Assembly: GCF_007744255.1 (NCBI RefSeq)
Contig: NZ_CP036267.1
Span: 1,985,500 to 2,049,499 of the forward strand
Length of the DNA: 64,000 nucleotides
Direction of reading: 5' to 3'
From: Thalassoglobus polymorphus
GTDB lineage: Bacteria; Planctomycetota; Planctomycetia; Planctomycetales; Planctomycetaceae
Within the stretch, counting starts at the first letter, position 1. The number at the start of each line of letters is the position of its first letter. Below are positions 20,784-36,258 of this stretch, piece after piece. Made by a program: the position numbers and the translations under genes. The notes under the pieces are model-generated. The model saw nothing but the letters and a program-made list of their open reading frames with translations. It did no database searches and was not told the origin of the DNA.

Positions 20784-21168
20784 TTTGGAGCCGACACAAA
20801 AGTGTGAGTGAGGCTCCGGGGACGAAAGATAGAAGTTCCTTCGCAGAGTTTCAAGATAGAGAGCGATTTCGCTTCAAGGATTTCTCTGAGAGCCCTCAAA
20901 CTCAGTCCATATTGACGGAATTTGCCGGTATCGAATATATCTCAGCTGGAAACATTGATGTTTCGGCCTCCAAACTCCTTGCTTGCAGTGACTTTAGAAT
21001 TCCTCATGTGACTGGTGAACTCCCAAAATCGCTGAAATTGCTGTCGTTGATTCAAATGATAGTCTGCGATTTTGTTGTTGTTCGATCAGATCAAGTCCTT
21101 TTGATGTTGGGGCTTGCTTGAGGAGTGAGTTGTCGACCTGGAATGGACTTTCGGACACAACATTAGAG

Positions 21169-22356
21169 ATGCCTTTTAAAATTCCAATTTTGCAGCGATA
21201 CATCCTGTGGGAAGTGCTGCGCGTGTTTGCGTTTGTGCTCACTTGTATTACCGTTTTGCTGGTTTTCGTCGGAGTTTTTCAACAGGCGACCGAACGTGGT
21301 TTGACGCCAGCCCATGCTTTACAGGTCTTGCCGTTTGTCGTTCCACATATGCTCCCGTTCACAATTCCGGCAGCAATGTTGTTGACGGTTTCGCTGGTAT
21401 ATGGACGATTGGCAGGTGATCAGGAAGTGATTGCCGCGAAATCTGCTGGGATACATCCAGTCTCGTTGATGTTACCTGCCCTGTTTCTTGGAGCGACATT
21501 AAGTGCGGGAACGCTGGTTTTAAGCGATCAAATGATTCCGTGGTCTATGACCAAAATTGAACAGCACGCGATTTCAGTCCTGGAAGATGTTTTCATCGAG
21601 CGTTTGCGAACAGAGTTGCAATTCAGCGACCGTGGGACTGGATTACACGTGCATGTTGCTGCCGTGGACGATCGTAAACTGATACATCCGGTCTTTCGCT
21701 ACGCGAAGAATGGTCGGATCGTAACGATGCAGGCTGAAGAAGCAGAACTACGACTCGATCTCAAACGTCAAGAGGTCGTGATTGCGATGACAAACGGGTT
21801 TATTGAGTTGCCGGGCGACCATCGTGTGTTTTTTAGTGGAACGCAGGAAGAACGAATTCGCTGGGAGCGCGAGGATGAAGTCCGCAAGGCACGAGATCTT
21901 CCAATTCTCTCAATCGGAACAGAAATTGAGCAGATCGAATCGTTTCGGGAGACTCAAAAGAAGAAACGAGCCATTCAAGCATTCATGTCGATGACTGGGG
22001 CGAATTTTCAGCAACTCGTAGGGGATGTCAAAACGACCACGAAAGAGCTGAACGGCGATCGCAAACGATACAACAAGCTCAACACCGAAGTGCATAGCCG
22101 CTACGCAATGGCCTGCAGCTGCTTCTTCTTTGCACTTCTGGGAAGTCCAGTCGCCATTCGGTTTGGACAGTCTCAGTTCTTGAAGAGTTTCATGCTCTGC
22201 TTCGTTCCAATTGTGTGTGGATATTATCCGTTAATGCTCGGTTTGATGGCGCAATCCAAAAACGGTCATATTTCTCCAGTATGGTCCATGTGGATCGCGA
22301 ACTTGATTGTGATTGCGTTGTCCTGGTTTGTCATGCGGAAAGTGGTTCGATACTAA
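21169..22356 (+). CDS. LptF/LptG family permease (YjgP/YjgQ)
   Basis: Start MPFKIPILQRYILWEVLRVF is the characteristic LptF/G N-terminus. Six TM segments with a large periplasmic domain between TM3 and TM4. Confidence 0.85.
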   Translation: MPFKIPILQRYILWEVLRVFAFVLTCITVLLVFVGVFQQATERGLTPAHALQVLPFVVPHMLPFTIPAAMLLTVSLVYGRLAGDQEVIAAKSAGIHPVSLMLPALFLGATLSAGTLVLSDQMIPWSMTKIEQHAISVLEDVFIERLRTELQFSDRGTGLHVHVAAVDDRKLIHPVFRYAKNGRIVTMQAEEAELRLDLKRQEVVIAMTNGFIELPGDHRVFFSGTQEERIRWEREDEVRKARDLPILSIGTEIEQIESFRETQKKKRAIQAFMSMTGANFQQLVGDVKTTTKELNGDRKRYNKLNTEVHSRYAMACSCFFFALLGSPVAIRFGQSQFLKSFMLCFVPIVCGYYPLMLGLMAQSKNGHISPVWSMWIANLIVIALSWFVMRKVVRY

Positions 22357-22902: not shown

Positions 22903-23080
22903 AGCACTTTTGAAAGATGTCCGCGAATAGTCTCGTGGAGATGGGTGATTCATCACATAGAAAGTCAGTCTTCACAGAGTTTGTTTTCACTGAGACGACA
23001 AGCATTGAAAATGCTTGACTTGGGTCTGCTCTGAGAGCAGACCGATTTCATCTTCACATGATCTCGGGGAAGGAGTCCCC

Positions 23081-25318
23081 ATGTCCGAACGAATGGAATC
23101 GTTCCCCATGAATTCTACTCAGAACTCTGACCGGCTTGAACAAGCCGGTCAGATTCTTTCTCATTTGCAGGCTCAACTCTCTGAGCTTGATCGCCGTGAG
23201 CAAAATCTGAATCAGCAAATGTCTGTGCTGATGGAACAACAACGCTCGACGCAGCAAAGCCAGGCAGTTGCGGAACGCAAGGCGAACGAATTGCGACAGG
23301 AACTTCTCGAACGCGAGCAAAAAGTTTCGGCAATCGAGAAAGAGGTCAACGAGCGTCGAACCGCAGCTGAACAACAAGAGGAGTCTGTTCGAAAGAAAGC
23401 AGACGCTCTGGAGTCTCAAAGAGCTCAGTTTGAACGCGAAATGCAGAAGAAGAGAGATGCCTTCGCTGCTGAGTGTCGCGAGAAACAAATTCGTCAACAG
23501 GCGGAACTTGCTAAAGAGTTGGAAGCATCTCGCAAGACGTTTGAAGAGGAATGCAAACAGCGCGAATCGACACTCGACGAACTGATTCGAGAACACGAAC
23601 AAGAATTCGCGGAAAAATCAGAGCGGTTCGAGAGCGAAAAAACGCGGCATCGGCAAAATGTCGAGGATTGGGCGAAGGAAAAAGTTCTCGAAAAGCAAAG
23701 ACTCCAACTCGAACGGCAAGCAAAACTGGAGCAGTTGGAAGCGGACTTCAACAACGAAGTGGCTGAGCATCAAGCGAAGATGTTACAAGAACGACATCAG
23801 CTCGATGAAGAAATTCGTTTGCATCAGCAGTCTGTCGAAGAATGGGAGACCCGACAGAAGGCCGAGAAAGAGGCCTTCGAAACTGAGATGCTGAGTCGCA
23901 CTCAGACATTCGAAACCGAGATGCTGGCGCGCACTCAGGCGTTCGAGCAGGAATCTCTTGAAAAGCAGACTCAATTCGAAGCCGAAGTTCAACGGCAACA
24001 AGAAGAAATCAAAACAGCTCGTCAAGCGTTCGAAGGGGAACAGCTGAGCCATCTCGAACAGGTAGAAGCCTGGGAACTCCAACAGGCAGCGGAAGAGAAG
24101 AAGCTCAAGGAGCAACTGAGAACTGAACGAGAAAATTTTGACGCACAATTAAAGCTGGAGAAAGAAACCTTCAATGAAGAATGTCGTGTTCTGGAAGAAG
24201 AGTTCTCACAGAAAGTTCAGATTGAGAAAGAAAATCTTCTCGAAGAACGGCGACGTCTGAAAGAAGAACTCTCTAAAGAGCTTTCCGAAGAAGCAGCTGC
24301 TTTGAAGGAAGCAAGGCGTCAACTTGAACTGGATCAGCGAGAGCAAAATCGACTGAATGAAGAATGGTCCAGTCAGCGAACAACTGAGCGTTCTCGACTA
24401 CTCGAAGAGCTTGAAGATGTGAAAAAGGAGAAGCTCGCTGCGCTCGATTTGCGTGAGAAGAATCTTCAGCGACGCGAGATCGATTTCGAGAAGCGAACTC
24501 AACTTCATGAAAGACACCTCGATCGTGTCCGGAATGATCTCAATGCAGAGTCAGCAGATTTAGAAAAGCAGCGTCAGAAGCAAAGGTTGTGGAAAGAGGA
24601 AGTTGAACGTGGGATTCGCTTACGGCTCACTCATATGAAACGTTTCCGTGACCTCGTTGGAAAGCGAGAGGACTGCCTGGAAGAAGAACAGAATCTGTTT
24701 GCGGAAACTCGTCGGACTACCGAACGTGACCTTGCTCGCTCGAAGGAACAATTTCTGGAAGAACGTCAACTGTGGTTGCAGCAACGTGCTTTGACACAAG
24801 AGCGGCTTCAGAATCAGGAGAAACGTCTCGACGAAGAGTATGCCTCACTTGTTGAGTCTCACAAACAGGTTGAAGCGCTCAGCGATGAACTGGAAGATTC
24901 ACTTCAAGAGACTTCAAAAACACCTAGCAACCAACCGGTTCAGGCATCGCGGCATCTGAATGGTTTGCTGGCAATCTTAGGGCGGCAGCGCCGTGAGGTG
25001 GAGCAGTCAATTCAACGTCTTCAAGAACGACTCATTGAGATGCGATCAGAAGGTGCCGAACTCTCTTCCTGGCTTGCTGATCAAGATCAGGTTGTCGCTG
25101 AGCGAGAACTTTCGCATCAAGAGAATCTGGAATCACTTTCAACTCGGGAGCAGGAATTCTCCGCGATTCGTGATCAATGGAACGTTGATCGACTTCAGGC
25201 GGAACATATCATTCGAGATTTGGTCACTCAATTGGAAGTGGCCCTTGATCAAATCGCGCGTTTGCAATCAGAACAAGATAAGGATGACGGATTCAGCTCG
25301 ATTTCACAGGCAGCTTAA
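23081..25318 (+). CDS. long coiled-coil protein (E/Q/R/K-rich, about 745 aa)
   Basis: Start at MSERMES, preceded by GGAAGGAG. Almost entirely heptad-like low-complexity sequence with internal repeats (FETEMLSRTQTFETEMLARTQAFEQE). Many spurious antisense ORFs overlap it. Confidence 0.75.
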   Translation: MSERMESFPMNSTQNSDRLEQAGQILSHLQAQLSELDRREQNLNQQMSVLMEQQRSTQQSQAVAERKANELRQELLEREQKVSAIEKEVNERRTAAEQQEESVRKKADALESQRAQFEREMQKKRDAFAAECREKQIRQQAELAKELEASRKTFEEECKQRESTLDELIREHEQEFAEKSERFESEKTRHRQNVEDWAKEKVLEKQRLQLERQAKLEQLEADFNNEVAEHQAKMLQERHQLDEEIRLHQQSVEEWETRQKAEKEAFETEMLSRTQTFETEMLARTQAFEQESLEKQTQFEAEVQRQQEEIKTARQAFEGEQLSHLEQVEAWELQQAAEEKKLKEQLRTERENFDAQLKLEKETFNEECRVLEEEFSQKVQIEKENLLEERRRLKEELSKELSEEAAALKEARRQLELDQREQNRLNEEWSSQRTTERSRLLEELEDVKKEKLAALDLREKNLQRREIDFEKRTQLHERHLDRVRNDLNAESADLEKQRQKQRLWKEEVERGIRLRLTHMKRFRDLVGKREDCLEEEQNLFAETRRTTERDLARSKEQFLEERQLWLQQRALTQERLQNQEKRLDEEYASLVESHKQVEALSDELEDSLQETSKTPSNQPVQASRHLNGLLAILGRQRREVEQSIQRLQERLIEMRSEGAELSSWLADQDQVVAERELSHQENLESLSTREQEFSAIRDQWNVDRLQAEHIIRDLVTQLEVALDQIARLQSEQDKDDGFSSISQAA

Positions 25319-25326
25319 ATGAGTCG

Positions 25327-28300
25327 TCAATCTCGATCCTGTGCTGCTTCGAGTTTATTGAGTAAGCGTTGATAGTTGCTCAAGCACTCCTCAATTTTGG
25401 GCTGCAGGTTCGAAATTTGTTGGTGTTGACTCATCGAGAGTTCTGTCAGCGGTTTGAGCCATTGCTGCATGAGTTCGAACTGAGACTCCAGAACTCCGTA
25501 AACCGTTTTCGGCAAACGATTGACGATTGTAATGCGCTCGTCTGACTTCGTGTTTTCGCCCTCTTCTTCGTCTACGATCTTTGGTCTGTTCTGATCCGAG
25601 GTGCTTCTCGGCTCTTCTGATCGCGCCGAATCAGGAGCAGTGGTGGTCGGAAATGTATCCGGCCATTTCATTTCAAGTGGCGGGACGCTCACATTGATGG
25701 GACGGTTCGAAAGTCGAGCAATTTGTTCCAGTCCGTCTGCCAGTTGTAAGGACATTGCACGAAGTTCTTCACGTAGGACATCCTCGTCAGGGGTGTCGCT
25801 CTGAGAATCTGACTTCGCTGAGAGGGTGGTTGCTCCCTCGTTGACTGCTTTACGAATTGAATCGAGACCATCGCTGAATGTCGTGAGTGTAGCGATCACT
25901 TGACCGACTTTGTCGTCTGATCCGATACCCCGCATTTTGATGTTCTGCTTGAACGTCCGTTTGATGTCGTCCCAACGTTCTTGCTCGCCTGCGGTGAGTG
26001 TTCCTGTCAATTCCTTAAACTTCAACAGGTTGGCTTCTGTTCCGGAGGTCAGTGTCTGAGCATCGTTCTGGTAGCTACTCTGGATCAGCGACTCGATCTC
26101 GTCGCCATTCATGACCGGCAGCACTTTCTCTGCGATACGGTTCATATTTCGATAAGAACCTTGCAGGAGAAATGGTGGCTCGGTGCGGTAATCATCATGC
26201 TGAGCCGCTGAGGTGATGTACTCCTGATTCACCCGCAGAACAACATCGCGGACTCGCATCAGTTTCATCATTGTGTCGACGAAATCGTTCAGCTCTTCCA
26301 TCGAGTAGTTGGCTTCGAAGTCGATTCCCTCAGAGGGAGCTGCGTCCCCACGCAGGGTTCGCTCCGCCATTTTTACAACGGCATACACATCCTTTTGAGA
26401 ACGAGATGCAAGTTTCCCCAGAACGGAATTCGAAGTGAGTGCGTTTTCGATATAGCTCAGTTCAAAGGCATCAGCAGTGTCGCCGATAATTTCACCGAGG
26501 TTGTAGATGTCGGCCCGATTGCTGAGCATGTCCGGGATCTGGAATTTCTCGCCGCTCTCCGTATACGGGTTTCCCGCCATCACAACGGCAACTTTTTTCC
26601 CCCGGAAATCATACGTCTGTGTTTTGCCTTTATAGACACCCTCAATTTTTCGTTGAGCATCGCACAAGCTGATAAACTTTTGCAGGAACTCGGTATGACA
26701 GTGCTGAATGTCGTCGAGATAGATGAGAACGTTGTCACCCATCTCGAAGGCCAGATTCAACTTCTCGACCTCTTCTCGTGCCCCAGCATTTGGAGCAGCT
26801 GCCGGATCGAGTGACGTCACCTCATGTCCCAATGCAGGGCCGTTGACCTTCATGAAGATGATGCCCAGACGATTGGCGATGTACTCCATCAGTGTTGTTT
26901 TTCCGTACCCAGGGGGAGAGATTAACAACAATAGACCTTGGCGATCGGTCCGTTTCCCTTCTCCAGTTGTCCCGATTTGTTTCGCGAGGTTATCCCCGAC
27001 TAACGGCAGATAGACCTGGTCGATCAATTGGTTGCGCACAAACGATGTGAGGACGCGAGGTTGGAATTCCGTGAGCTTCATCGCGTCTCGGTGTTCATCA
27101 ACCAGCTGAGATTTCAACTCATGATAGCGTTTGAAGCGAGGGATGGTCTCGCGTTCAAAAGTGCTCAAGCGATCCAGAAAGTGGTTAAATCGTAACTCAT
27201 AATTTCCGGACTGAATGACAGGGTGTGTCCCGATCATCTTGGTGAGTTTACGTTCCATCTGAGCTGCCACGACAGCCCGTTCATCGACTTGACCATCCAT
27301 GATCAGCTTGGCGATTTCTTCACGATAGTCGAAAACTTCCTCTCCGTTTCCGTAGTTCAGCAGAAAAGCTGTGGTCCAGTCACGTGCAAGTTCGAAAGAT
27401 GCCAGCGTATCGCGCTGAACCGCTTTCATCGCTTTCGTGAAACGTTCCTGCGCATCCAATCGTTTTAAGTGATCATGGAACTCACGAAACAGATCGGCTG
27501 CTGTTTGCGACACAACAAACTGGTTTCCGCGTACTCTGCGTGAATCATCGGTCAGTTCATCAAACAGATACTCAGCAGCTTCATGAACTCGCCCAGACGG
27601 GACTTCGGATGTTCCGTAGAATTCACTTTCTTCGATAAACTCGAGCAGCATCTCGCGAAGATCCGCAAGATACTCTTGTTGTTGATCCGTGCCTGGGAAG
27701 AATTGCGAGATCGTCCCGAAACCGGTTAGAACCTGCTCTTTGAGCTTTTTCGTTTTCGAATCTCCAAAGTTCCACCAGAATAAATTTGCCAAAACGCGGC
27801 TTTGTGAAGAGTACCGCAACAGTCCACAGGCGTTATCAATTTCAAGGAGTGCGTGAAGGATCTTGACGGCATCTTGATCGTGCACCCCTTTCGAGTACCC
27901 TTCCTGATAACGTGGTCCCATGAACTTCTGAACTTCGCTGAGAAGATCAACTTCGTTCATCAGCTGTTTCGCGGACTGCGGCGACGATTGGTCTTCGTAA
28001 GGATTCCACTGTCCGTTTCGTGCGGCCTGTAACATTGTGTAGGCCAGGAATTCAGCCCGGTAGACATCCTTGTTCTCGCTGACAACTTCCATCGTCCAGA
28101 CTGATTGTGTAGAGTTCAGCTCTTCGCTGTTCACCGGTTCGTAGAAGTCTGTCCCTGTCAAATGGTAATTGAGTTCCCCATCGCGAAGGACGGTCGTCAG
28201 GTCGAGGACCTGCGTGTTGACCGAGAAGCGGTGGTTGCCGAATCGGATGACGTGATCGCCATCTTCATACAGTTCCTTCTTGTCTTTCAGTTGCCGGACT

Positions 28301-30804
28301 GCATCTTCGCGAATTGTTTTCAGCCGCGACTGGATATCGTCAACCTTGACGCTGTCTCCCAAGCCTTCCAGATCCGAGATGATATTGCGAACCTTGTCGA
28401 TCATCAGGTCGGAGGCGAAATATCCATGGATATCACTGATCTCCTGGAAGGATTCGATGCGATTCTTCACACCTTTCAGGATACGATCAGCAGCATCGGC
28501 AAGTGCATTGGCCCGTTTGTTTCTCTTCTCGACAAGTTGCATTCGCCGTGAACCAAACGCGCCAGCAACTTCTTCTCGTTTGTCAGCAAGCTGGACGATG
28601 AACTCATCAAACTCGGCAAATTTTCCCTCGAGTTCCTCAAGCTGAACCATTAACTTGGTGAGGTATTCTTCACACTTTTCGGGGGAGTCGCAAACATCGA
28701 GGTAGTTGACAACCGACTGGTTCATCAACTTCAACTGACTCGAAAACTCCGCGGAGCCTTCTACGGATGCCAGTTCCTGAATCTTTCGTTTCAGCGACGC
28801 CCGAGCTGCATTGACGTGCGAGAAGATTCCAGAAATGTTGTCGATGATCGTCGTACGTTGCGTGGCGTCATCGATTTTGAGATTGCTGACAATTTCGATC
28901 AGCATTTCTAATTCGTGCGACGACTCTGCAATCTTCTCTTCGACCTGTTTCGCATCAGCAACCTTGTTGAGATCGTCAATCCCCGCTTGTTCAATCGCGA
29001 CAGCATCGGCATAGGGCTGTAATGCGTCGTCGTTTAACAAAAACTCAACACATCGATGCGAAAGCTGTTCCGCCTGTTCTGCAACTTCTGTTTCCAGCTG
29101 CTCAATCAGTTCCGTGTCGGCATATCGTAAGTCGCGCAAGCCGATAATCTCGCCACGAACACGTCGCAGCCCTGCCAGGGATTTTACGAAGGAGTCGATG
29201 TTGTCAAATCGTCGCCGACCGACTTCATTCAACAATTCACGAGTTTCGCCAGCGACCTGCTGAGTCTGCTCGCGAGTGTTTTGTCGGACACGAACAACTT
29301 TCTCGAACTCATCAACCGCCGATGTCGCTGCGACTTTGATTTGTTGTAACGGTTCACCAAGGTTGGCGGCTTCGGCGTTGTTGATCCAAAAGTAACTGTC
29401 GAGAATATCGCCGGCGTACTTGACCAGATCGACGTACAGGTCTGAGTAGCTGTCTTCTTTCTCGATAAGATTCAAGATCTCGTGACACTCCGCCATTCCG
29501 CGAACGATGTCTCGATTGCCGATCTTGTACAGATAGGAATCTGTGTTCTCAAAAGTTTCGTAATCCTCTCCAACGTACGGAGTTTGCCAGACCTGAACCG
29601 CGTGGTGCTTTTGTGGCTCACCATGAGATTTGAAGAGGATCGTTTCGCCGCCACGGAACATCGTAAAACCGTTACAGATGACCGGAGTGTCGACAACTTG
29701 CTCAATGAGATTGTAACCGAGTAAAACGTACGCACCTTGGACCGGTTGGTAAAAAACATACAGCGTATCCTCGCCATTCGGGGAAGAGACGCGTCGGTCG
29801 AAAATCAATCCTTGAATGCTGGTGTCAAACGTTTTCCGTTCACCACTTTGCAGATAGTACCCGTTGGAAAAAATCAGCCCATGATCATCTGGCAGCAAGA
29901 CGCATGCGTCAGCGATTGAATCGACGCGGCTCGCTTTTTGAATCTTTTCATTGAAGACGATGTAGCGCCAATCCTGCTCCTGGTAAGGCCTGATTTTGAG
30001 CAGAATCGTGTGACCAACCAATGCGTAGAAAATGTCCGCATCGTCGAGCGTCTGGTCCGCATTCTCGACAGGTTCCTCATAGATCCCTGCTCCCGATTCC
30101 GTATTATTCTCAACCTTAATGGTCAGGTCACCGCCGACGGTCTCAACGAAAATTCGGTCATCAATCGAGATATGCGGATGCTCCCCATGTCGCTGCATGT
30201 CTCGCGTGGTCTTCTGCCATTCGAATTCGTGCTGAGCCGGAAAACGAACTTCGTGGTCGCTGCGATTATCGAGATACCGCAGCGTGCTCCCTTCAACCAG
30301 CCACTTAAAAGATTTGATGTCGGTCGGACTTTTCCCAACCTGAAAGACCATATAAAGATGAACACCACGTTTGTAAAACTTCGCGAATGTGGCGCTCTTG
30401 TAATATCGATAGACATCCTGAAAGTCTTTTTCGAACGTCGCATTTTGGAGGAGATCTAAAGGCTCCGGGCTGAACGTTTTGGTCTCATTGTCGAACGAGT
30501 ACACCGCAAACACATCTGCAACATTTCGTTCGGTACGAAGTCCAAACTGGACATTGTATCCGAATAAAAACTGATCCCCAACCGCCACCATGTCGCGCGG
30601 GACACAGTTGTGCTCGGTTGTGATTCTCTCAGTGTTCAGGAGCTTTAGATCGATCGAACCGAAAACTTCTTTGCGGTTCTCATTCAGTTGATCCAAGCGA
30701 CTCCGCAACTCCTCCCCGTGCGACCGCAGCCGATTCCGCAGGATCTCATAGGTCCCGGATTCAAGTTGCGTGGCAGCTTCAGGTTGTTGTGGAGAAGAGT
30801 CCAT
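25327..30804 (-). CDS. giant (1825 aa) protein with one AAA+ ATPase module; function unknown; third gene of the flotillin operon
   Basis: Uninterrupted 5.5-kb ORF. Walker A LLLLISPPGYGKTTLMEY (coding nt about 26899-26907), Walker B VLIYLDDIQH, sensor-1-like VVMAGNP, and Arg residues downstream. The rest is alpha-helical and acidic with no recognisable domain. Confidence 0.9.
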   Translation of the reverse strand: MDSSPQQPEAATQLESGTYEILRNRLRSHGEELRSRLDQLNENRKEVFGSIDLKLLNTERITTEHNCVPRDMVAVGDQFLFGYNVQFGLRTERNVADVFAVYSFDNETKTFSPEPLDLLQNATFEKDFQDVYRYYKSATFAKFYKRGVHLYMVFQVGKSPTDIKSFKWLVEGSTLRYLDNRSDHEVRFPAQHEFEWQKTTRDMQRHGEHPHISIDDRIFVETVGGDLTIKVENNTESGAGIYEEPVENADQTLDDADIFYALVGHTILLKIRPYQEQDWRYIVFNEKIQKASRVDSIADACVLLPDDHGLIFSNGYYLQSGERKTFDTSIQGLIFDRRVSSPNGEDTLYVFYQPVQGAYVLLGYNLIEQVVDTPVICNGFTMFRGGETILFKSHGEPQKHHAVQVWQTPYVGEDYETFENTDSYLYKIGNRDIVRGMAECHEILNLIEKEDSYSDLYVDLVKYAGDILDSYFWINNAEAANLGEPLQQIKVAATSAVDEFEKVVRVRQNTREQTQQVAGETRELLNEVGRRRFDNIDSFVKSLAGLRRVRGEIIGLRDLRYADTELIEQLETEVAEQAEQLSHRCVEFLLNDDALQPYADAVAIEQAGIDDLNKVADAKQVEEKIAESSHELEMLIEIVSNLKIDDATQRTTIIDNISGIFSHVNAARASLKRKIQELASVEGSAEFSSQLKLMNQSVVNYLDVCDSPEKCEEYLTKLMVQLEELEGKFAEFDEFIVQLADKREEVAGAFGSRRMQLVEKRNKRANALADAADRILKGVKNRIESFQEISDIHGYFASDLMIDKVRNIISDLEGLGDSVKVDDIQSRLKTIREDAVRQLKDKKELYEDGDHVIRFGNHRFSVNTQVLDLTTVLRDGELNYHLTGTDFYEPVNSEELNSTQSVWTMEVVSENKDVYRAEFLAYTMLQAARNGQWNPYEDQSSPQSAKQLMNEVDLLSEVQKFMGPRYQEGYSKGVHDQDAVKILHALLEIDNACGLLRYSSQSRVLANLFWWNFGDSKTKKLKEQVLTGFGTISQFFPGTDQQQEYLADLREMLLEFIEESEFYGTSEVPSGRVHEAAEYLFDELTDDSRRVRGNQFVVSQTAADLFREFHDHLKRLDAQERFTKAMKAVQRDTLASFELARDWTTAFLLNYGNGEEVFDYREEIAKLIMDGQVDERAVVAAQMERKLTKMIGTHPVIQSGNYELRFNHFLDRLSTFERETIPRFKRYHELKSQLVDEHRDAMKLTEFQPRVLTSFVRNQLIDQVYLPLVGDNLAKQIGTTGEGKRTDRQGLLLLISPPGYGKTTLMEYIANRLGIIFMKVNGPALGHEVTSLDPAAAPNAGAREEVEKLNLAFEMGDNVLIYLDDIQHCHTEFLQKFISLCDAQRKIEGVYKGKTQTYDFRGKKVAVVMAGNPYTESGEKFQIPDMLSNRADIYNLGEIIGDTADAFELSYIENALTSNSVLGKLASRSQKDVYAVVKMAERTLRGDAAPSEGIDFEANYSMEELNDFVDTMMKLMRVRDVVLRVNQEYITSAAQHDDYRTEPPFLLQGSYRNMNRIAEKVLPVMNGDEIESLIQSSYQNDAQTLTSGTEANLLKFKELTGTLTAGEQERWDDIKRTFKQNIKMRGIGSDDKVGQVIATLTTFSDGLDSIRKAVNEGATTLSAKSDSQSDTPDEDVLREELRAMSLQLADGLEQIARLSNRPINVSVPPLEMKWPDTFPTTTAPDSARSEEPRSTSDQNRPKIVDEEEGENTKSDERITIVNRLPKTVYGVLESQFELMQQWLKPLTELSMSQHQQISNLQPKIEECLSNYQRLLNKLEAAQDRD

Positions 30805-30911
30805 TAATAATCAATATTGAAAACAGGGATTGAAGACGACTGTAAATAGAGAATGTTCTACGTGCCTACGAAATTCAGTAGTGGCGGCGATTTACTGAAT
30901 AATTCCTAAGG

Positions 30912-30940
30912 TTTTCCGGACACATCAAGTGTCCGGAAAA
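30912..30940. promoter_or_regulatory. Perfect 12-bp palindromic stem-loop in the flotillin-ATPase intergenic spacer
   Basis: TTTTCCGGACAC-ATCAA-GTGTCCGGAAAA. Begins 11 nt after the flotillin stop, within the 146-bp spacer. There is no U-tract on either strand. Confidence 0.5.
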
Positions 30941-30950
30941 CTCGCAGCGG

Positions 30951-33065
30951 TTATGCATTCCCTTCTTCACTTGCCAGAACCCCCAAGCCTAAGGTCGCGA
31001 CTTTCTTGTCCATGAGACCGGCGTTTTTGAAGTATTTCTGCAGCTTCTTTAAACCCGATGTTGTTTTTTCGTCGTCAGATTCAAGAAGCATCTTGCCGAG
31101 GACGGCGGAGACGCTGAGGTCTTTGACGTCTTCGAATGAAATTCCGAACTGGCTGGTGAATTTCAGCAGGTTTTCTTTGAAGTCACCGTCGGCATCTCCC
31201 ACGAAGAAAGTATTCTTGACGTCAGTGACGACCTCGGAATTGTTCACGTAGCGGTCAACAGCTTTCCCGGCCTGAATAGAACCGACGATCTTGTCGAAGA
31301 ACTCGGTTTCGCCACCGACAATGTCGATGCGGGCGTTGCCGAGTGCGGCTCCGACAATCTCGGATTGTTCGCGGGCGATCTCTGTTTGTGCGTTGATGGC
31401 TGCGATTTCGATGTCTTTGTCTTTGTTGAGTCGAAGTTTGAATTCTTCGTGCTCGCGTCCCACTCCATCGAAGAGCTTCATCGCTTCGGCTTTCTGCTCG
31501 ATGCCCTTTGCGTCGGCGTAGTACTTCTGTTCGATGACAGTCGCTTCGGCCATACCTTCTTTCTCGAGTGCTTCCGCCTTGGCCTTTTGACCTTTGGCTT
31601 CTGCAACAATTTTCTTCTCGATAACGTTGGCTTCGGCGGACCCTTCTTTCTCAATGGCTTCCGCACGGACGCTCATGACTTGAGCTTCAGCCAATCCCTC
31701 AGCGGCAACTTCCGCCTGGCGAGCTTCTGCGAGCATTTTCTTGGCTGCGGTTTCTTTCTCAGCTGCAGAGCGGGAAGCTTCCGCTTCGATGACCACTTTC
31801 TCTGCTTCGAACCCGGCTGCCTGTTTTTGGGCCTCGGCTGCTTTGATCTCTTTGACTAATGCTTCTTCGGCATCTCGTTCGGCATTGGTAATCGCAACTT
31901 TCTTGGATCGATCTGCAGTGGCGAATTCTTCTGTGTCAAAGATACGTTGTTGTTCTTCGACCACTGAGCGTTCGACAGCGACTCGCTCGCGGATCACATC
32001 TTGAATGTTTCGTTTCTCAATTTCGATGGCTTTCTCTTTTTCAATCTCCGCTAAGCCAACGATTCGTTCGCGTTCGGTCACTTCGAGCAAACGGTCTTTC
32101 TCAACCCGTTCAATTTCAACCGCTTCTGTTCGTTCTTTATTTTTCTGAGCGACAACAATTTGACGAAGTTTGTTTTCTTCAGCGACCTGCAATTCTTCTT
32201 CTGTCGCAATGCGAGCTGAGTCTGCTCGGAGCCGTTGTTCTTCCTGGACTTTGGCAGCTTCTGCATGCTCACGGGCAGAGATTTCAGCGATTTCACGTTT
32301 TTGCTTTTCGACCGCTTCAACGCGTTGCTTTTCAAGTTCCAGGATTGCTTCCTGAGCATCAACGTCCTGCTTCTTGATCGTCTTTTCTTTCTCACGCAGA
32401 ATCTCATTCGATTGAATATGTTCCTGAGCCGTGAGGTTGGTGATCTTCTTGATTCCCTCCGCGTCGAGGATGTTCATCTCGCTGAGATGCTCGATGGGGG
32501 TCTGTTCCAGAAAATCAATGGCACAGTCGTCGAGAATGTATCCGTTGAGATCAGTCCCGATGTGCTTCAGGATTTCTTCTTTGAACTGATCACGCTCGGT
32601 GTAAAGATCGACGAAGTCGAAATGTTTTCCGACAGTCTTGAGTGCTTCTGAAAACTTGGCATCAAAGAGTTCAACCAGTGCAGCTTTCTCTGAGGCACGC
32701 TTACAGCCAAGAGCCTGAGCCACCTGAAGAATGTCTTGTGACGTATTGTTCACACGGACGAAGAAGGCGACTTCGATATCTGCTCGGACGTTATCTTTGC
32801 AAATCAATCCGGAGACATCACGTCGTGAAATTTCGATTCGTTTGACCGAAAGATCCATGTGTTCGACACGGTGTGCGATGGGAATCACCCACATCCCGCC
32901 ACCCGAGACGACCCTCATGCCGCCCCAACCCGTTTTGACCAATGCCTCTTCTGGTCCCACCTTGCGGTAGAAGCGTGACATCGCAAAGAGAAAGCCGACG
33001 AAGATGAAACCGCAGGCAAAAGCTATCGGTACGAAAATTTCCCAAGGCATGTGATCGCCCTTCAT
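30951..33065 (-). CDS. flotillin-like SPFH/band-7 protein (YqiK-like) with long Ala/Glu-rich coiled-coil
   Basis: N-terminal TM hairpin, SPFH core (GGMRVVSGGGMWVIPIAHRVEHMDLSVKRIEISRRD...), then about 350 aa of EA-rich coiled-coil and a C-terminal domain, as in YqiK/FloT. Confidence 0.85.
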   Translation of the reverse strand: MKGDHMPWEIFVPIAFACGFIFVGFLFAMSRFYRKVGPEEALVKTGWGGMRVVSGGGMWVIPIAHRVEHMDLSVKRIEISRRDVSGLICKDNVRADIEVAFFVRVNNTSQDILQVAQALGCKRASEKAALVELFDAKFSEALKTVGKHFDFVDLYTERDQFKEEILKHIGTDLNGYILDDCAIDFLEQTPIEHLSEMNILDAEGIKKITNLTAQEHIQSNEILREKEKTIKKQDVDAQEAILELEKQRVEAVEKQKREIAEISAREHAEAAKVQEEQRLRADSARIATEEELQVAEENKLRQIVVAQKNKERTEAVEIERVEKDRLLEVTERERIVGLAEIEKEKAIEIEKRNIQDVIRERVAVERSVVEEQQRIFDTEEFATADRSKKVAITNAERDAEEALVKEIKAAEAQKQAAGFEAEKVVIEAEASRSAAEKETAAKKMLAEARQAEVAAEGLAEAQVMSVRAEAIEKEGSAEANVIEKKIVAEAKGQKAKAEALEKEGMAEATVIEQKYYADAKGIEQKAEAMKLFDGVGREHEEFKLRLNKDKDIEIAAINAQTEIAREQSEIVGAALGNARIDIVGGETEFFDKIVGSIQAGKAVDRYVNNSEVVTDVKNTFFVGDADGDFKENLLKFTSQFGISFEDVKDLSVSAVLGKMLLESDDEKTTSGLKKLQKYFKNAGLMDKKVATLGLGVLASEEGNA

Positions 33066-33108: not shown

Positions 33109-33732
33109 TTAAGCCAGGTGGTCACCTGTCTCTTTGACGTAATAAATTCCGGTATCAGGTGAGAAATCCACAATCTGGACAACCGCATCTTTTGGAATCG
33201 AGCCTTCAATTGTTCGGATATTCAACCGCAGTGGGGCTCCATCCTCGACATGACAGATTCCATTTCCGAACTTGGGCGTCACTTCACTGGTAATCACCGA
33301 ACATGTTCGCCCTAACATGTCCTGAACTGTGTTTGGCTCCTTGGATCGTAACTTGCCCCGCATTGGATTCGTCAGGATTTTCGCCGCGAGTATTCCAATT
33401 CCCAGGCTCCTCCCAATCGCAACAGCATTCTGTTGAAAAGTTGGATTGACCATGTCTCGATCGAACACCATCGTTACGACCCATGCAGCGAGTGCGACGA
33501 TTGACATCCACAACATGACCGGAACTTCACCAAGGTTCAGCCATTTTAACCCCAACATTCCCAGGTCAGTGACCGAGGCATCCATGTCCGGATCGAGATC
33601 CAGATCGAAATCGATTGCGTCCATGTCGATCCCTCCCAGTATGACGAGCAGCCAGTACGCGCATACGAGACAGAGCAGGATGCTGAAAGGCAGAACCGGC
33701 CACTGGAAGTAGGTTTCAACAATGTCAATCAT
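33109..33732 (-). CDS. NfeD-like membrane protein (YqiJ family) with C-terminal OB-fold
   Basis: 207 aa with two or three TM helices, an acidic DxD-rich loop, and a C-terminal NfeD-type beta-barrel (GRTCSVITSEVTPKFGNGICHVEDG...AVVQIVDF). Lies 43 bp upstream of the flotillin gene. GGAG RBS. Confidence 0.8.
   Translation of the reverse strand: MIDIVETYFQWPVLPFSILLCLVCAYWLLVILGGIDMDAIDFDLDLDPDMDASVTDLGMLGLKWLNLGEVPVMLWMSIVALAAWVVTMVFDRDMVNPTFQQNAVAIGRSLGIGILAAKILTNPMRGKLRSKEPNTVQDMLGRTCSVITSEVTPKFGNGICHVEDGAPLRLNIRTIEGSIPKDAVVQIVDFSPDTGIYYVKETGDHLA

Positions 33733-34776: not shown

Positions 34777-36258
<1,482 letters not shown>

Follow-up and report, generated by a model that had tools for sequence, protein, structure and literature searches.

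A giant AAA+ ATPase encoded with flotillin in Thalassoglobus polymorphus: domain map, operon conservation and a possible role in remodelling membrane scaffolds

SPFH scaffolds repeatedly pair with AAA+ machines, as HflK/C do with FtsH, prohibitin with the m-AAA protease and SLP2 with YME1L, and the N-terminally anchored flotillin cage sits on the cytoplasmic side. No dedicated ATPase has yet been shown to assemble, open or recycle the flotillin/SPFH cages and PspA polymers of bacteria, and according to a 2025 review (PMC7619361) an ATPase of the Vps4 kind "appears absent in bacteria". SPFH2-NfeD2 operons have been described with the ATPase not included (Hinderhofer et al. 2009, PMC2636767), and a PSP-linked flotillin operon system with an AAA+ ATPase has been reported in which beta-propeller repeats and a coiled coil form the N-terminal part and are fused to a novel AAA+ ATPase, and whose abbreviated operons without PspA "are more widely distributed" (Ravi et al. 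2024, mSystems, PMC11237479); the part of the supplement text available to us contains no mention of "propeller", "DUF3686" or "YqiJ". Here we describe one such ATPase, a protein of 1825 residues encoded beside a flotillin gene in a 64,000-nucleotide stretch of the Thalassoglobus polymorphus genome (Planctomycetota; contig NZ_CP036267.1, positions 1,985,500 to 2,049,499), which we call the window and within which positions are counted from the first letter.

Both the architecture and the flotillin link were already known; the ATPase is not a protein of a new kind, nor is it observed here for the first time. What we add is a domain map at residue level, the exclusion of hidden AAA modules, the placement of the AAA+ module as MoxR/dynein-like with a pre-sensor-1 hairpin and an Asp-Asp (DD) Walker B, a quantification of operon conservation across the nine or more phyla that the family spans, and the case for regarding the database name as misleading. 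The family of Ravi et al. has the same PF12458 + PF25472 + AAA architecture over the full length of the present ATPase. Their full operon includes a CesT/Tir-PspA dyad that is lacking near the present copy; the window locus is the "abbreviated", PspA-less form of that operon, because neither PspA nor CesT/Tir was found in the window (tblastn best E 1.9 and 0.022, respectively). The present ATPase also carries a C-terminal tail of ~170 residues that Bacteroidota, Clostridia and many other members lack.

By its Pfam matches the 1825-residue open reading frame (ORF) belongs to a DUF3686-DUF7902-AAA+ family that NCBI names "DNA repair ATPase", as it does the top match, a Thalassoglobus sp. protein with 97% identity. 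The search that returned this match covered 5.8 billion proteins, of which 8,000 candidates were scored, and at least 6,505 of these are relatives at E <= 1e-10; the same three Pfam domains occur in 120/120 relatives listed, and named members are 36-97% identical to the ATPase over ~90-100% of its length. With the N-terminal domain alone as query, 783 clusters (50% identity level) were obtained at E <= 0.001, and within complete chains of ~1600-1930 residues this domain is always N-terminal. Further members, at 36-42% identity, came from a search of plasmids: Pseudomonas, Proteus, Vibrio, Photobacterium, Halomonas, Streptomyces, Nonomuraea and Deinococcus. The ATPase is a typical representative of a catalogued family known from computational description. 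Its domain composition is well known in the databases (DUF3686 + DUF7902 + AAA, >6,500 proteins) but not in functional terms, all parts being domains of unknown function (DUFs). A 1711-residue homologue with 62% identity is listed among eukaryotic proteomes (eukprot g33011.t1, P0079); given this planctomycete-level identity, it is probably bacterial contamination and not a eukaryotic member.

Operon context across phyla

Genomic context is the most informative evidence on this protein. Directly upstream of the ATPase gene lies a gene for a 704-residue flotillin-like SPFH protein that comprises an N-terminal transmembrane (TM) segment, a Band_7 domain and a long coiled coil rich in Glu, Ala and Lys, preceded by the gene for a YqiJ/YuaF-type membrane protein whose YqiJ_N Pfam match (E 3e-4) is under the gathering cut-off; the gaps are 43 nt between yqiJ and flotillin and 146 nt between flotillin and ATPase. 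A scan with one genome per species recovered at least 570 related loci, the best 80 of which were used for context analyses. These 80 come from Planctomycetota, Bacteroidota, Verrucomicrobiota, Desulfobacterota, Clostridia, Kiritimatiellota and Omnitrophota and match the ATPase with 45-58% identity across residues ~10-1655 (tblastn). Where at least 3 kb of upstream flank was present, the order YqiJ, flotillin, ATPase on one strand was seen by tblastn in ~55 of 58 loci (~95%), which again span all seven of these lineages, and YqiJ-type homologues were found at the equivalent position in at least 44 loci. The flotillin-to-ATPase gap has a median of 115 nt and shrinks to 12 nt in Clostridia, ATPase and flotillin covary in their pairwise identity (Pearson r = 0.79, 44 loci), and all-against-all clustering of the neighbouring ORFs revealed no other gene that is conserved across phyla. 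We consider it highly probable that the ATPase is functionally coupled to the flotillin module.

Counts by tblastn were preferred over those of an ORF picker, which overlooked several flotillins on account of long antisense ORFs in their Glu/Ala-rich coiled-coil region. At L039 (4647-6767, minus strand) and at five other loci (ORF cluster 8) these antisense ORFs reach ~700 residues, as long as the real flotillin gene, and probably lead automated pipelines to mis-annotate such loci.

Additional partners appear in particular lineages. Sixteen Bacteroidota loci encode PspA/IM30, in 15 directly upstream of the triad on the same strand and in one downstream on the opposite strand; a CesT_Tir_1 gene is present in 14 of these 15 and a divergently transcribed helix-turn-helix regulator in 13 Bacteroidota loci. 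This arrangement agrees with the operon published by Ravi et al. On pQBR103, a 425-kb plasmid of Pseudomonas fluorescens SBW25, the annotated order is YjfI, PspA, rhomboid, DUF2491, DUF350, DUF1190, glutathionylspermidine-synthase family, hypothetical, SPFH and "DNA repair ATPase", with YjfI-PspA at the head and six genes between it and the SPFH gene, and a Streptomyces locus reads hypothetical, flotillin, "DNA repair ATPase"; the triad order recurs at both. The pQBR103 region (L081, NC_009444.1 84452-105326) joins a YjfI-PspA polyamine-type operon head-to-tail with a YqiJ-like/SPFH/ATPase triad in a ten-gene same-strand block, which makes this plasmid a tractable model for the whole system.

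Copies on large plasmids (pQBR103; Streptomyces and Deinococcus plasmids), restriction-like or STAND genes beside or within the operon at some loci, and a phyletic pattern that is patchy despite 47-58% inter-phylum identity and thereby suggests horizontal transfer would suit a mobile module for conflict or phage defence, with flotillin and ATPase as a pair that detects infection and either damages the membrane or seals it. We hold this to be very improbable: the conserved partners are envelope-stress genes (PspA, CesT/Tir, YqiJ) and not nucleases or toxins, the inserted genes vary from locus to locus, and PADLOC, run on the three operon proteins, found only a 30-residue P-loop match of the ATPase to IetA (E 5e-4) beside a weak mad8 match in the P-loop region (E 0.0097, no stretch passing alone) and no match for flotillin or YqiJ.

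In several Bacteroidota genes intervene between flotillin and ATPase (L016 6615-7701, L025 7536-7958, L051 5859-7759, L050 6519-7943, L031 6618-7784). These inserts of 0.6-2.4 kb are mutually unrelated (DMP19-like, DUF3997, DUF559 endonuclease-like and unknowns) and look like insertions, so that a conserved extra gene at this position was rejected; the flotillin-ATPase junction seems to tolerate or attract insertions.

Domain anatomy and the single AAA+ module

Two overlapping AlphaFold2 (AF2) models, built from alignments of 113 sequences, cover residues 1-1000 and 840-1825 (mean predicted local distance difference test score, pLDDT, 83.5 and 83.6, respectively); the domain boundaries are collected in Table 1. 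The DUF3686 match takes in the full Pfam profile (positions 1-448 of 448), and in the model this domain is a beta-propeller, because the PDB matches of the N-terminal model by Foldseek (Elp1, clathrin heavy chain, WD40, prolyl oligopeptidase and Kelch; E 5e-7 to 1e-4) are beta-propellers; from the strand count it is probably seven-bladed. Behind it follow a bundle or arm with helices of up to 58 residues that contains DUF7902, a small beta domain, an all-alpha domain predicted with pLDDT ~91-97 for the most part (70-92 at residues 930-970), and a hairpin with a long helix that leads into the ATPase. Whole-model fold searches, in which the AAA module dominated the matches, gave no fold for residues 852-890 or 916-1170, and Pfam at E up to 10 matched nothing in residues 851-1250 or 1440-1825. 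Members outside Planctomycetota mostly end at ~residue 1655, as seen from the extents of the tblastn matches. The tail beyond the three long C-terminal helices is found in Planctomycetota and a few other long members (alignment occupancy 0.26 for the linker, 0.47 for the helix), carries a motif conserved within Planctomycetota, and consists of an acidic, Pro-rich, disordered linker (pLDDT 31-49) and a terminal helix (pLDDT ~74-83).

Several points of a preliminary description, made from the letters alone, carry over: the 1825-residue ORF lies where it had been placed on the minus strand, the motifs ISPPGYGKTT (1295-1304), VLIYLDDIQH (1359-1368) and VVMAGNP (1407-1413) are at the sites given, and the protein is acidic and free of TM segments (pI 4.9 overall and 4.8-5.3 per segment; highest 19-residue Kyte-Doolittle mean 1.07). 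The ~1250-residue N-terminal region that it had left unassigned, by contrast, contains DUF3686 and DUF7902, and the parts outside the AAA+ module, which it had called helical, include the all-beta propeller. Its C-terminal "unassigned" region is indeed devoid of Pfam matches, but residues 1444-1600 form the lid and extension of the AAA+ module. The suggestion that the flanks might hide novel domains was overtaken for the N-terminal part, which is already in print as beta-propeller repeats with a coiled coil (PMC11237479). The conserved YqiJ-flotillin operon just upstream had escaped that description. Since neither a signal peptide nor a TM-like stretch was found in the ATPase, the protein is, as judged from its sequence, cytoplasmic.

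That one AAA+ module is present, as also noted at the outset, was upheld by every search for additional lobes. No further Walker A or Walker B motif was found: the protein has a sole P-loop, the other GK[ST] strings being GKS157 in the propeller and GKT1393 in the pre-sensor-1 hairpin; a single alpha-beta-alpha domain is seen across both AF2 models; and hhalign comparison of residues 851-915, 916-1180, 1181-1250 and 1601-1700 with the AAA large lobe or lid gave probabilities < 1%. On these grounds, and with Pfam searches of sub-segments, a hidden midasin/dynein-like ring or cryptic AAA lobes could be ruled out.

The motifs SPPGYGKTT (1296-1304), DDIQH (1364-1368), NRAD (1429-1432) and GSYRNMN (1549-1555) are invariant in the 113 homologues of the conservation alignment, drawn from Planctomycetota and Clostridia, and are kept in the pQBR103 homologue; LIYLDD (1360-1365) and VVMAGNP (1407-1413) are likewise invariant in the 113. 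Residues S1296, G1299, G1301, K1302, T1303, D1364, D1365, Q1367, H1368, N1412, R1430 and R1552 are invariant across the alignment, and K1302, T1303, D1364, D1365, N1412, R1430 and R1552 are also retained on pQBR103. Because of this invariance we read the site as a conserved nucleotide site and not as a chance motif match. The AAA large lobe is the most conserved region (67% of columns >= 90% identical), followed by the propeller (38%), with 33% in the small beta domain; the alpha domain 916-1170, the most variable folded part, and the C-terminal tail are least conserved. The invariant site and the conserved lobe together point to an active enzyme.

Which clade the module belongs to was approached by comparison with known AAA+ proteins. 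Sequence and profile searches of the PDB gave matches of only ~40-70 residues around the P-loop and no solved relative, and weak Pfam matches at residues 1283-1417 comprise AAA, AAA_22, AAA_5 and RuvB_N, among which AAA_5 exceeds the gathering score and AAA (PF00004; 32 bits) covers profile positions 1-72 of 131 only. The AAA_5 match and the pre-sensor-1 beta-hairpin, which the AF2 model places between alpha-3 and beta-4 (strands 1386-1391 and 1394-1399), are features shared with the MoxR clade, and the module is MoxR/dynein-like. Its sequence identity to the MoxR family (CbbQ, NorQ, RavA) amounts to 10-14%, and it differs from MoxR proteins of ~300 residues in the ~1250 residues N-terminal to the AAA+ module and in the DD of its Walker B; it may also lack the helix-2 insert, since the single predicted model has a loop with short helical turns and no hairpin at residues 1322-1339. 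Dynein and midasin carry six modules per chain, as opposed to one in the present ATPase.

The kinship with MoxR proteins could mean that the ATPase is a maturation chaperone, a ring that inserts a cofactor into, or activates, a membrane complex held in the flotillin domain. CbbQ, NorQ and RavA act in this way on Rubisco, NO reductase and others. MoxR proteins, however, have a VWA/MIDAS partner, and none was detected in the present protein or among its conserved neighbours; we rate this explanation as improbable.

The classical AAA clade (PF00004: Vps4, p97, FtsH) was rejected as an assignment owing to the partial PF00004 match, the lack of an aromatic pore loop and the presence of a pre-sensor-1 hairpin. 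Classical-clade AAA proteins are without this hairpin. The p97/Rpt/Vps4 chains and PF00004 do match the P-loop region, and Vps4-ESCRT-III and FtsH-HflK/C share with the present system the theme of an AAA+ protein encoded with an SPFH scaffold, often along with PspA of the ESCRT-III superfamily; there is, however, no homology to Vps4 or FtsH beyond the generic AAA+ core, and the ATPase has no MIT domain, protease domain or TM anchor.

The name "DNA repair ATPase" (NCBI/UniRef), echoed by the Pfam text on DUF3686 ("ATPase involved in DNA repair"), would be literal if the protein acted, for example, in RuvB-like branch migration or as an SMC/SbcC-like coiled-coil ATPase. RuvB is in fact the top Foldseek match (E 1.9e-5) and also matches the P-loop weakly in Pfam and NCBIfam, and the pre-sensor-1 hairpin is rich in Lys and Arg. 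The RuvB NCBIfam models, however, reach 20.6 and 18.6 bits, where the cut-offs are 282 and 299, and span just 43-45 residues around the P-loop, Pfam detected no DNA-binding domain in the whole protein or in sub-segments, no repair gene is conserved as a neighbour where membrane-scaffold genes are at ~95% of loci, and our literature searches found no paper backing the name. A role in DNA repair is therefore hardly credible, and the label is probably wrong; it misdirects researchers.

A possible remodeller of flotillin scaffolds

Because the ATPase is almost always encoded beside flotillin, we propose that it remodels flotillin. Specifically, and with roughly even chances of being right, we favour a cytoplasmic AAA+ mechano-enzyme that remodels flotillin (and PspA) assemblies. 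As the third gene product of the conserved operon, after the YqiJ/NfeD2-like protein and the long flotillin (SPFH2), the ATPase would oligomerise through its single MoxR/dynein-like module into a ring, most likely a hexamer of ~1.2 MDa, from which each subunit would project an arm of ~1250 residues made up of the propeller, the long-helix bundle, the small beta domain and the alpha domain. Propeller and arm would dock on the cytoplasmic face of the flotillin/YqiJ cage or on a client held there, presumably PspA in lineages that encode PspA alongside, and ATP binding and hydrolysis would drive assembly, disassembly/opening or turnover of the scaffold during envelope stress. In functional terms this would be analogous to Vps4 on ESCRT-III, NSF on SNAREs, FtsH inside HflK/C and prohibitin with the m-AAA protease. 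The resemblance of the propeller to peptide- and protein-binding propellers by Foldseek (clathrin, WD40, Kelch) counts for such a role, as do the operon linkage, the PspA genes that accompany the triad in Bacteroidota and on pQBR103, the invariant nucleotide site, the location of the protein on the side where the flotillin cage sits and the known pairing of SPFH scaffolds with AAA+ machines. Our analysis establishes the domain anatomy, the intact and invariant residues of the nucleotide site, the presence of one AAA+ module and the conservation of the operon across phyla; the oligomeric state, the physical binding of flotillin and the direction of remodelling are what we infer.

Several observations weigh against this proposal. 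Our literature searches on the family found no experimental work, physical or genetic, on any member. The AF2 models are of monomeric fragments (pTM 0.58-0.68), with uncertain relative placement of the domains. The nearest structural relatives, MoxR-type CbbQ and NorQ, work with the VWA partners that were not found here, and PspA, one of the two supposed substrates, is not encoded in the window. Three loci (L015, L026 and L038) have no flotillin within 8 kb upstream, and at L015 and L038 the upstream ORFs, by Pfam, are only unrelated or mobile-type genes that offer no alternative scaffold partner. Finally, the Walker B motif is an invariant DD, not DE, and the aromatic-hydrophobic pair of a pore loop is absent from the loop after beta-2 (residues 1321-1345), and for these two reasons a Vps4-like threading mechanism is not implied. 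Taken together, these two features and the MoxR-like fold speak against classical polypeptide threading; a grip-and-pull or switch-like action is more likely.

The same Walker B and pore-loop features fit slow or regulatory hydrolysis, and ~70% of the mass is non-ATPase scaffold, which raises the alternative of an ATP-switched structural or coat-like protein whose propeller and arm build a lattice or tether on flotillin microdomains, with the AAA+ module as a slow nucleotide switch that controls oligomerisation. The layout of propeller and long arm recalls clathrin or protocoatomer, and clathrin heavy chain, with its propeller followed by a helical leg, is indeed among the Foldseek matches, but similarity to clathrin by TM-score is very low (0.13-0.22), the long helices of the arm run antiparallel and do not form an alpha-solenoid, and the AAA lobe, including the candidate Arg finger and sensors, is the most conserved part, which suggests real catalysis. 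We regard a coat-like protein as unlikely.

The remodelling proposal has a wider form, which we put forward tentatively and as less than an even bet: the family would be the missing ATP-driven remodeller of bacterial membrane scaffolds, a ring-forming AAA+ protein that would use its propeller and helical arms to seize flotillin cages and, in lineages that have them, PspA/ESCRT-III polymers, and would assemble, open or recycle these under envelope stress. If true, bacteria would have a non-homologous functional counterpart of Vps4. A very large family with ~50% identity across phyla over 1,650 residues, and near-always with flotillin, is an obvious candidate for this part, and the domain map, the invariant catalytic residues and the availability of tractable hosts (Pseudomonas fluorescens SBW25 with pQBR103, Proteus mirabilis, Clostridium and Flavobacteriia) make the hypothesis testable.

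Feature coordinates and further observations at the locus

Table 1. Features of the ATPase and its operon (residues of the ATPase; nucleotide positions in the window).
Feature	Residues	Nucleotides	Strand	Basis and remarks
YqiJ/YuaF-type (NfeD2-like) membrane protein		33109..33732	minus	207 aa; first operon gene
Flotillin-like SPFH gene		30951..33065	minus	704 aa; Pfam Band_7 E 1.4e-10; directly upstream of ATPase
Perfect stem-loop, 13 bp		30911..30941	minus	starts 10 nt past flotillin stop, in spacer before ATPase gene
ATPase ORF		25327..30804	minus	1825 aa, uninterrupted; ORF list and translation, Pfam, closest homologue
N-terminal helix	16-48			AF2; ahead of propeller
DUF3686 (PF12458)	32-472	29389..30711	minus	E 2.5e-194; 646.4 bits, cut-off 25
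Beta-propeller	54-407	29584..30645	minus	AF2; ~27 strands; pLDDT mostly 86-95
Helices	424-475			AF2
Long-helix bundle or arm	483-845	28270..29358	minus	AF2 DSSP; pLDDT ~70-90
DUF7902 (PF25472)	593-677	28774-29028	minus	E 5.5e-28; 97.4 bits, cut-off 26
Small five-stranded beta domain	852-890	28135..28251	minus	in both AF2 models
All-alpha domain	916-1170	27295..28059	minus	AF2; ~11 helices
Beta-hairpin and long connecting helix into ATPase	1184-1205 and 1206-1242	27079..27255	minus	AF2 DSSP
AAA+ large (alpha-beta-alpha) lobe	1259-1440	26485..27030	minus	
Walker A, SPPGYGKT	1296-1303	26896-26919	minus	
Walker B, LIYLDD	1360-1365	26710-26730	minus	ends in D1364-D1365
Pre-sensor-1 beta-hairpin	1386-1399	26608-26649	minus	AF2
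Sensor-1	N1412			within VVMAGNP 1407-1413
Candidate Arg finger	R1430			
Enlarged helical lid and extension	1444-1600	26005..26475	minus	AF2 DSSP, invariance
Candidate sensor-2	R1552			within invariant lid motif GSYRNMN
Three long C-terminal helices	1605-1699	25708..25992	minus	AF2; occupancy 0.77
Lineage-specific tail	1701-1764 (linker) and 1766-1823 (helix)	25336..25704	minus	terminal helix of 58 residues

At two of the loci without an upstream flotillin (L015 2336-6721 and L038 5921-6508), STAND-NTPase/TPR, DUF4258 toxin-like, Uma2 endonuclease-like and TonB_C genes precede an intact ATPase gene, which suggests that the operon was split there by mobile or defence-island insertions. At the third, in a Cytophagaceae metagenome-assembled genome (L026 8001-12857), the tblastn alignment takes in ATPase residues 12-1634 with 53% identity, yet no long sense ORF was recovered, only short antisense ORFs, and this ATPase gene may be frameshifted or decayed, the upstream flotillin being absent as well.

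Around the operon in the window, a 767-residue ORF (23015-25318, plus strand) runs towards the ATPase gene and stops 9 nt short of the ATPase stop codon; neither Pfam nor NCBIfam matches it, and no homologue lies beside the ATPase in the 80 related loci. Genes with envelope-related products lie on either side of the operon. A gene for a DegP/HtrA-type protease (Trypsin_2 and two PDZ domains; 34777-36258, plus strand) is divergent from the operon, ~1 kb upstream of yqiJ, and one for an LptF/LptG permease (21118-22356, plus strand) lies on the downstream side; neither is conserved as a neighbour in other phyla.

The spacer between flotillin and ATPase contains a perfect stem-loop, GUUUUCCGGACAC-UUGAU-GUGUCCGGAAAAC, and folds, as a 151-nt RNA, with -40.2 kcal/mol (z = -4.3 relative to shuffled sequences). 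It is not followed by a U-run and the terminator scan made no call on it; the structure could attenuate read-through or stabilise the upstream transcript, thereby setting the ratio of flotillin to ATPase expression.

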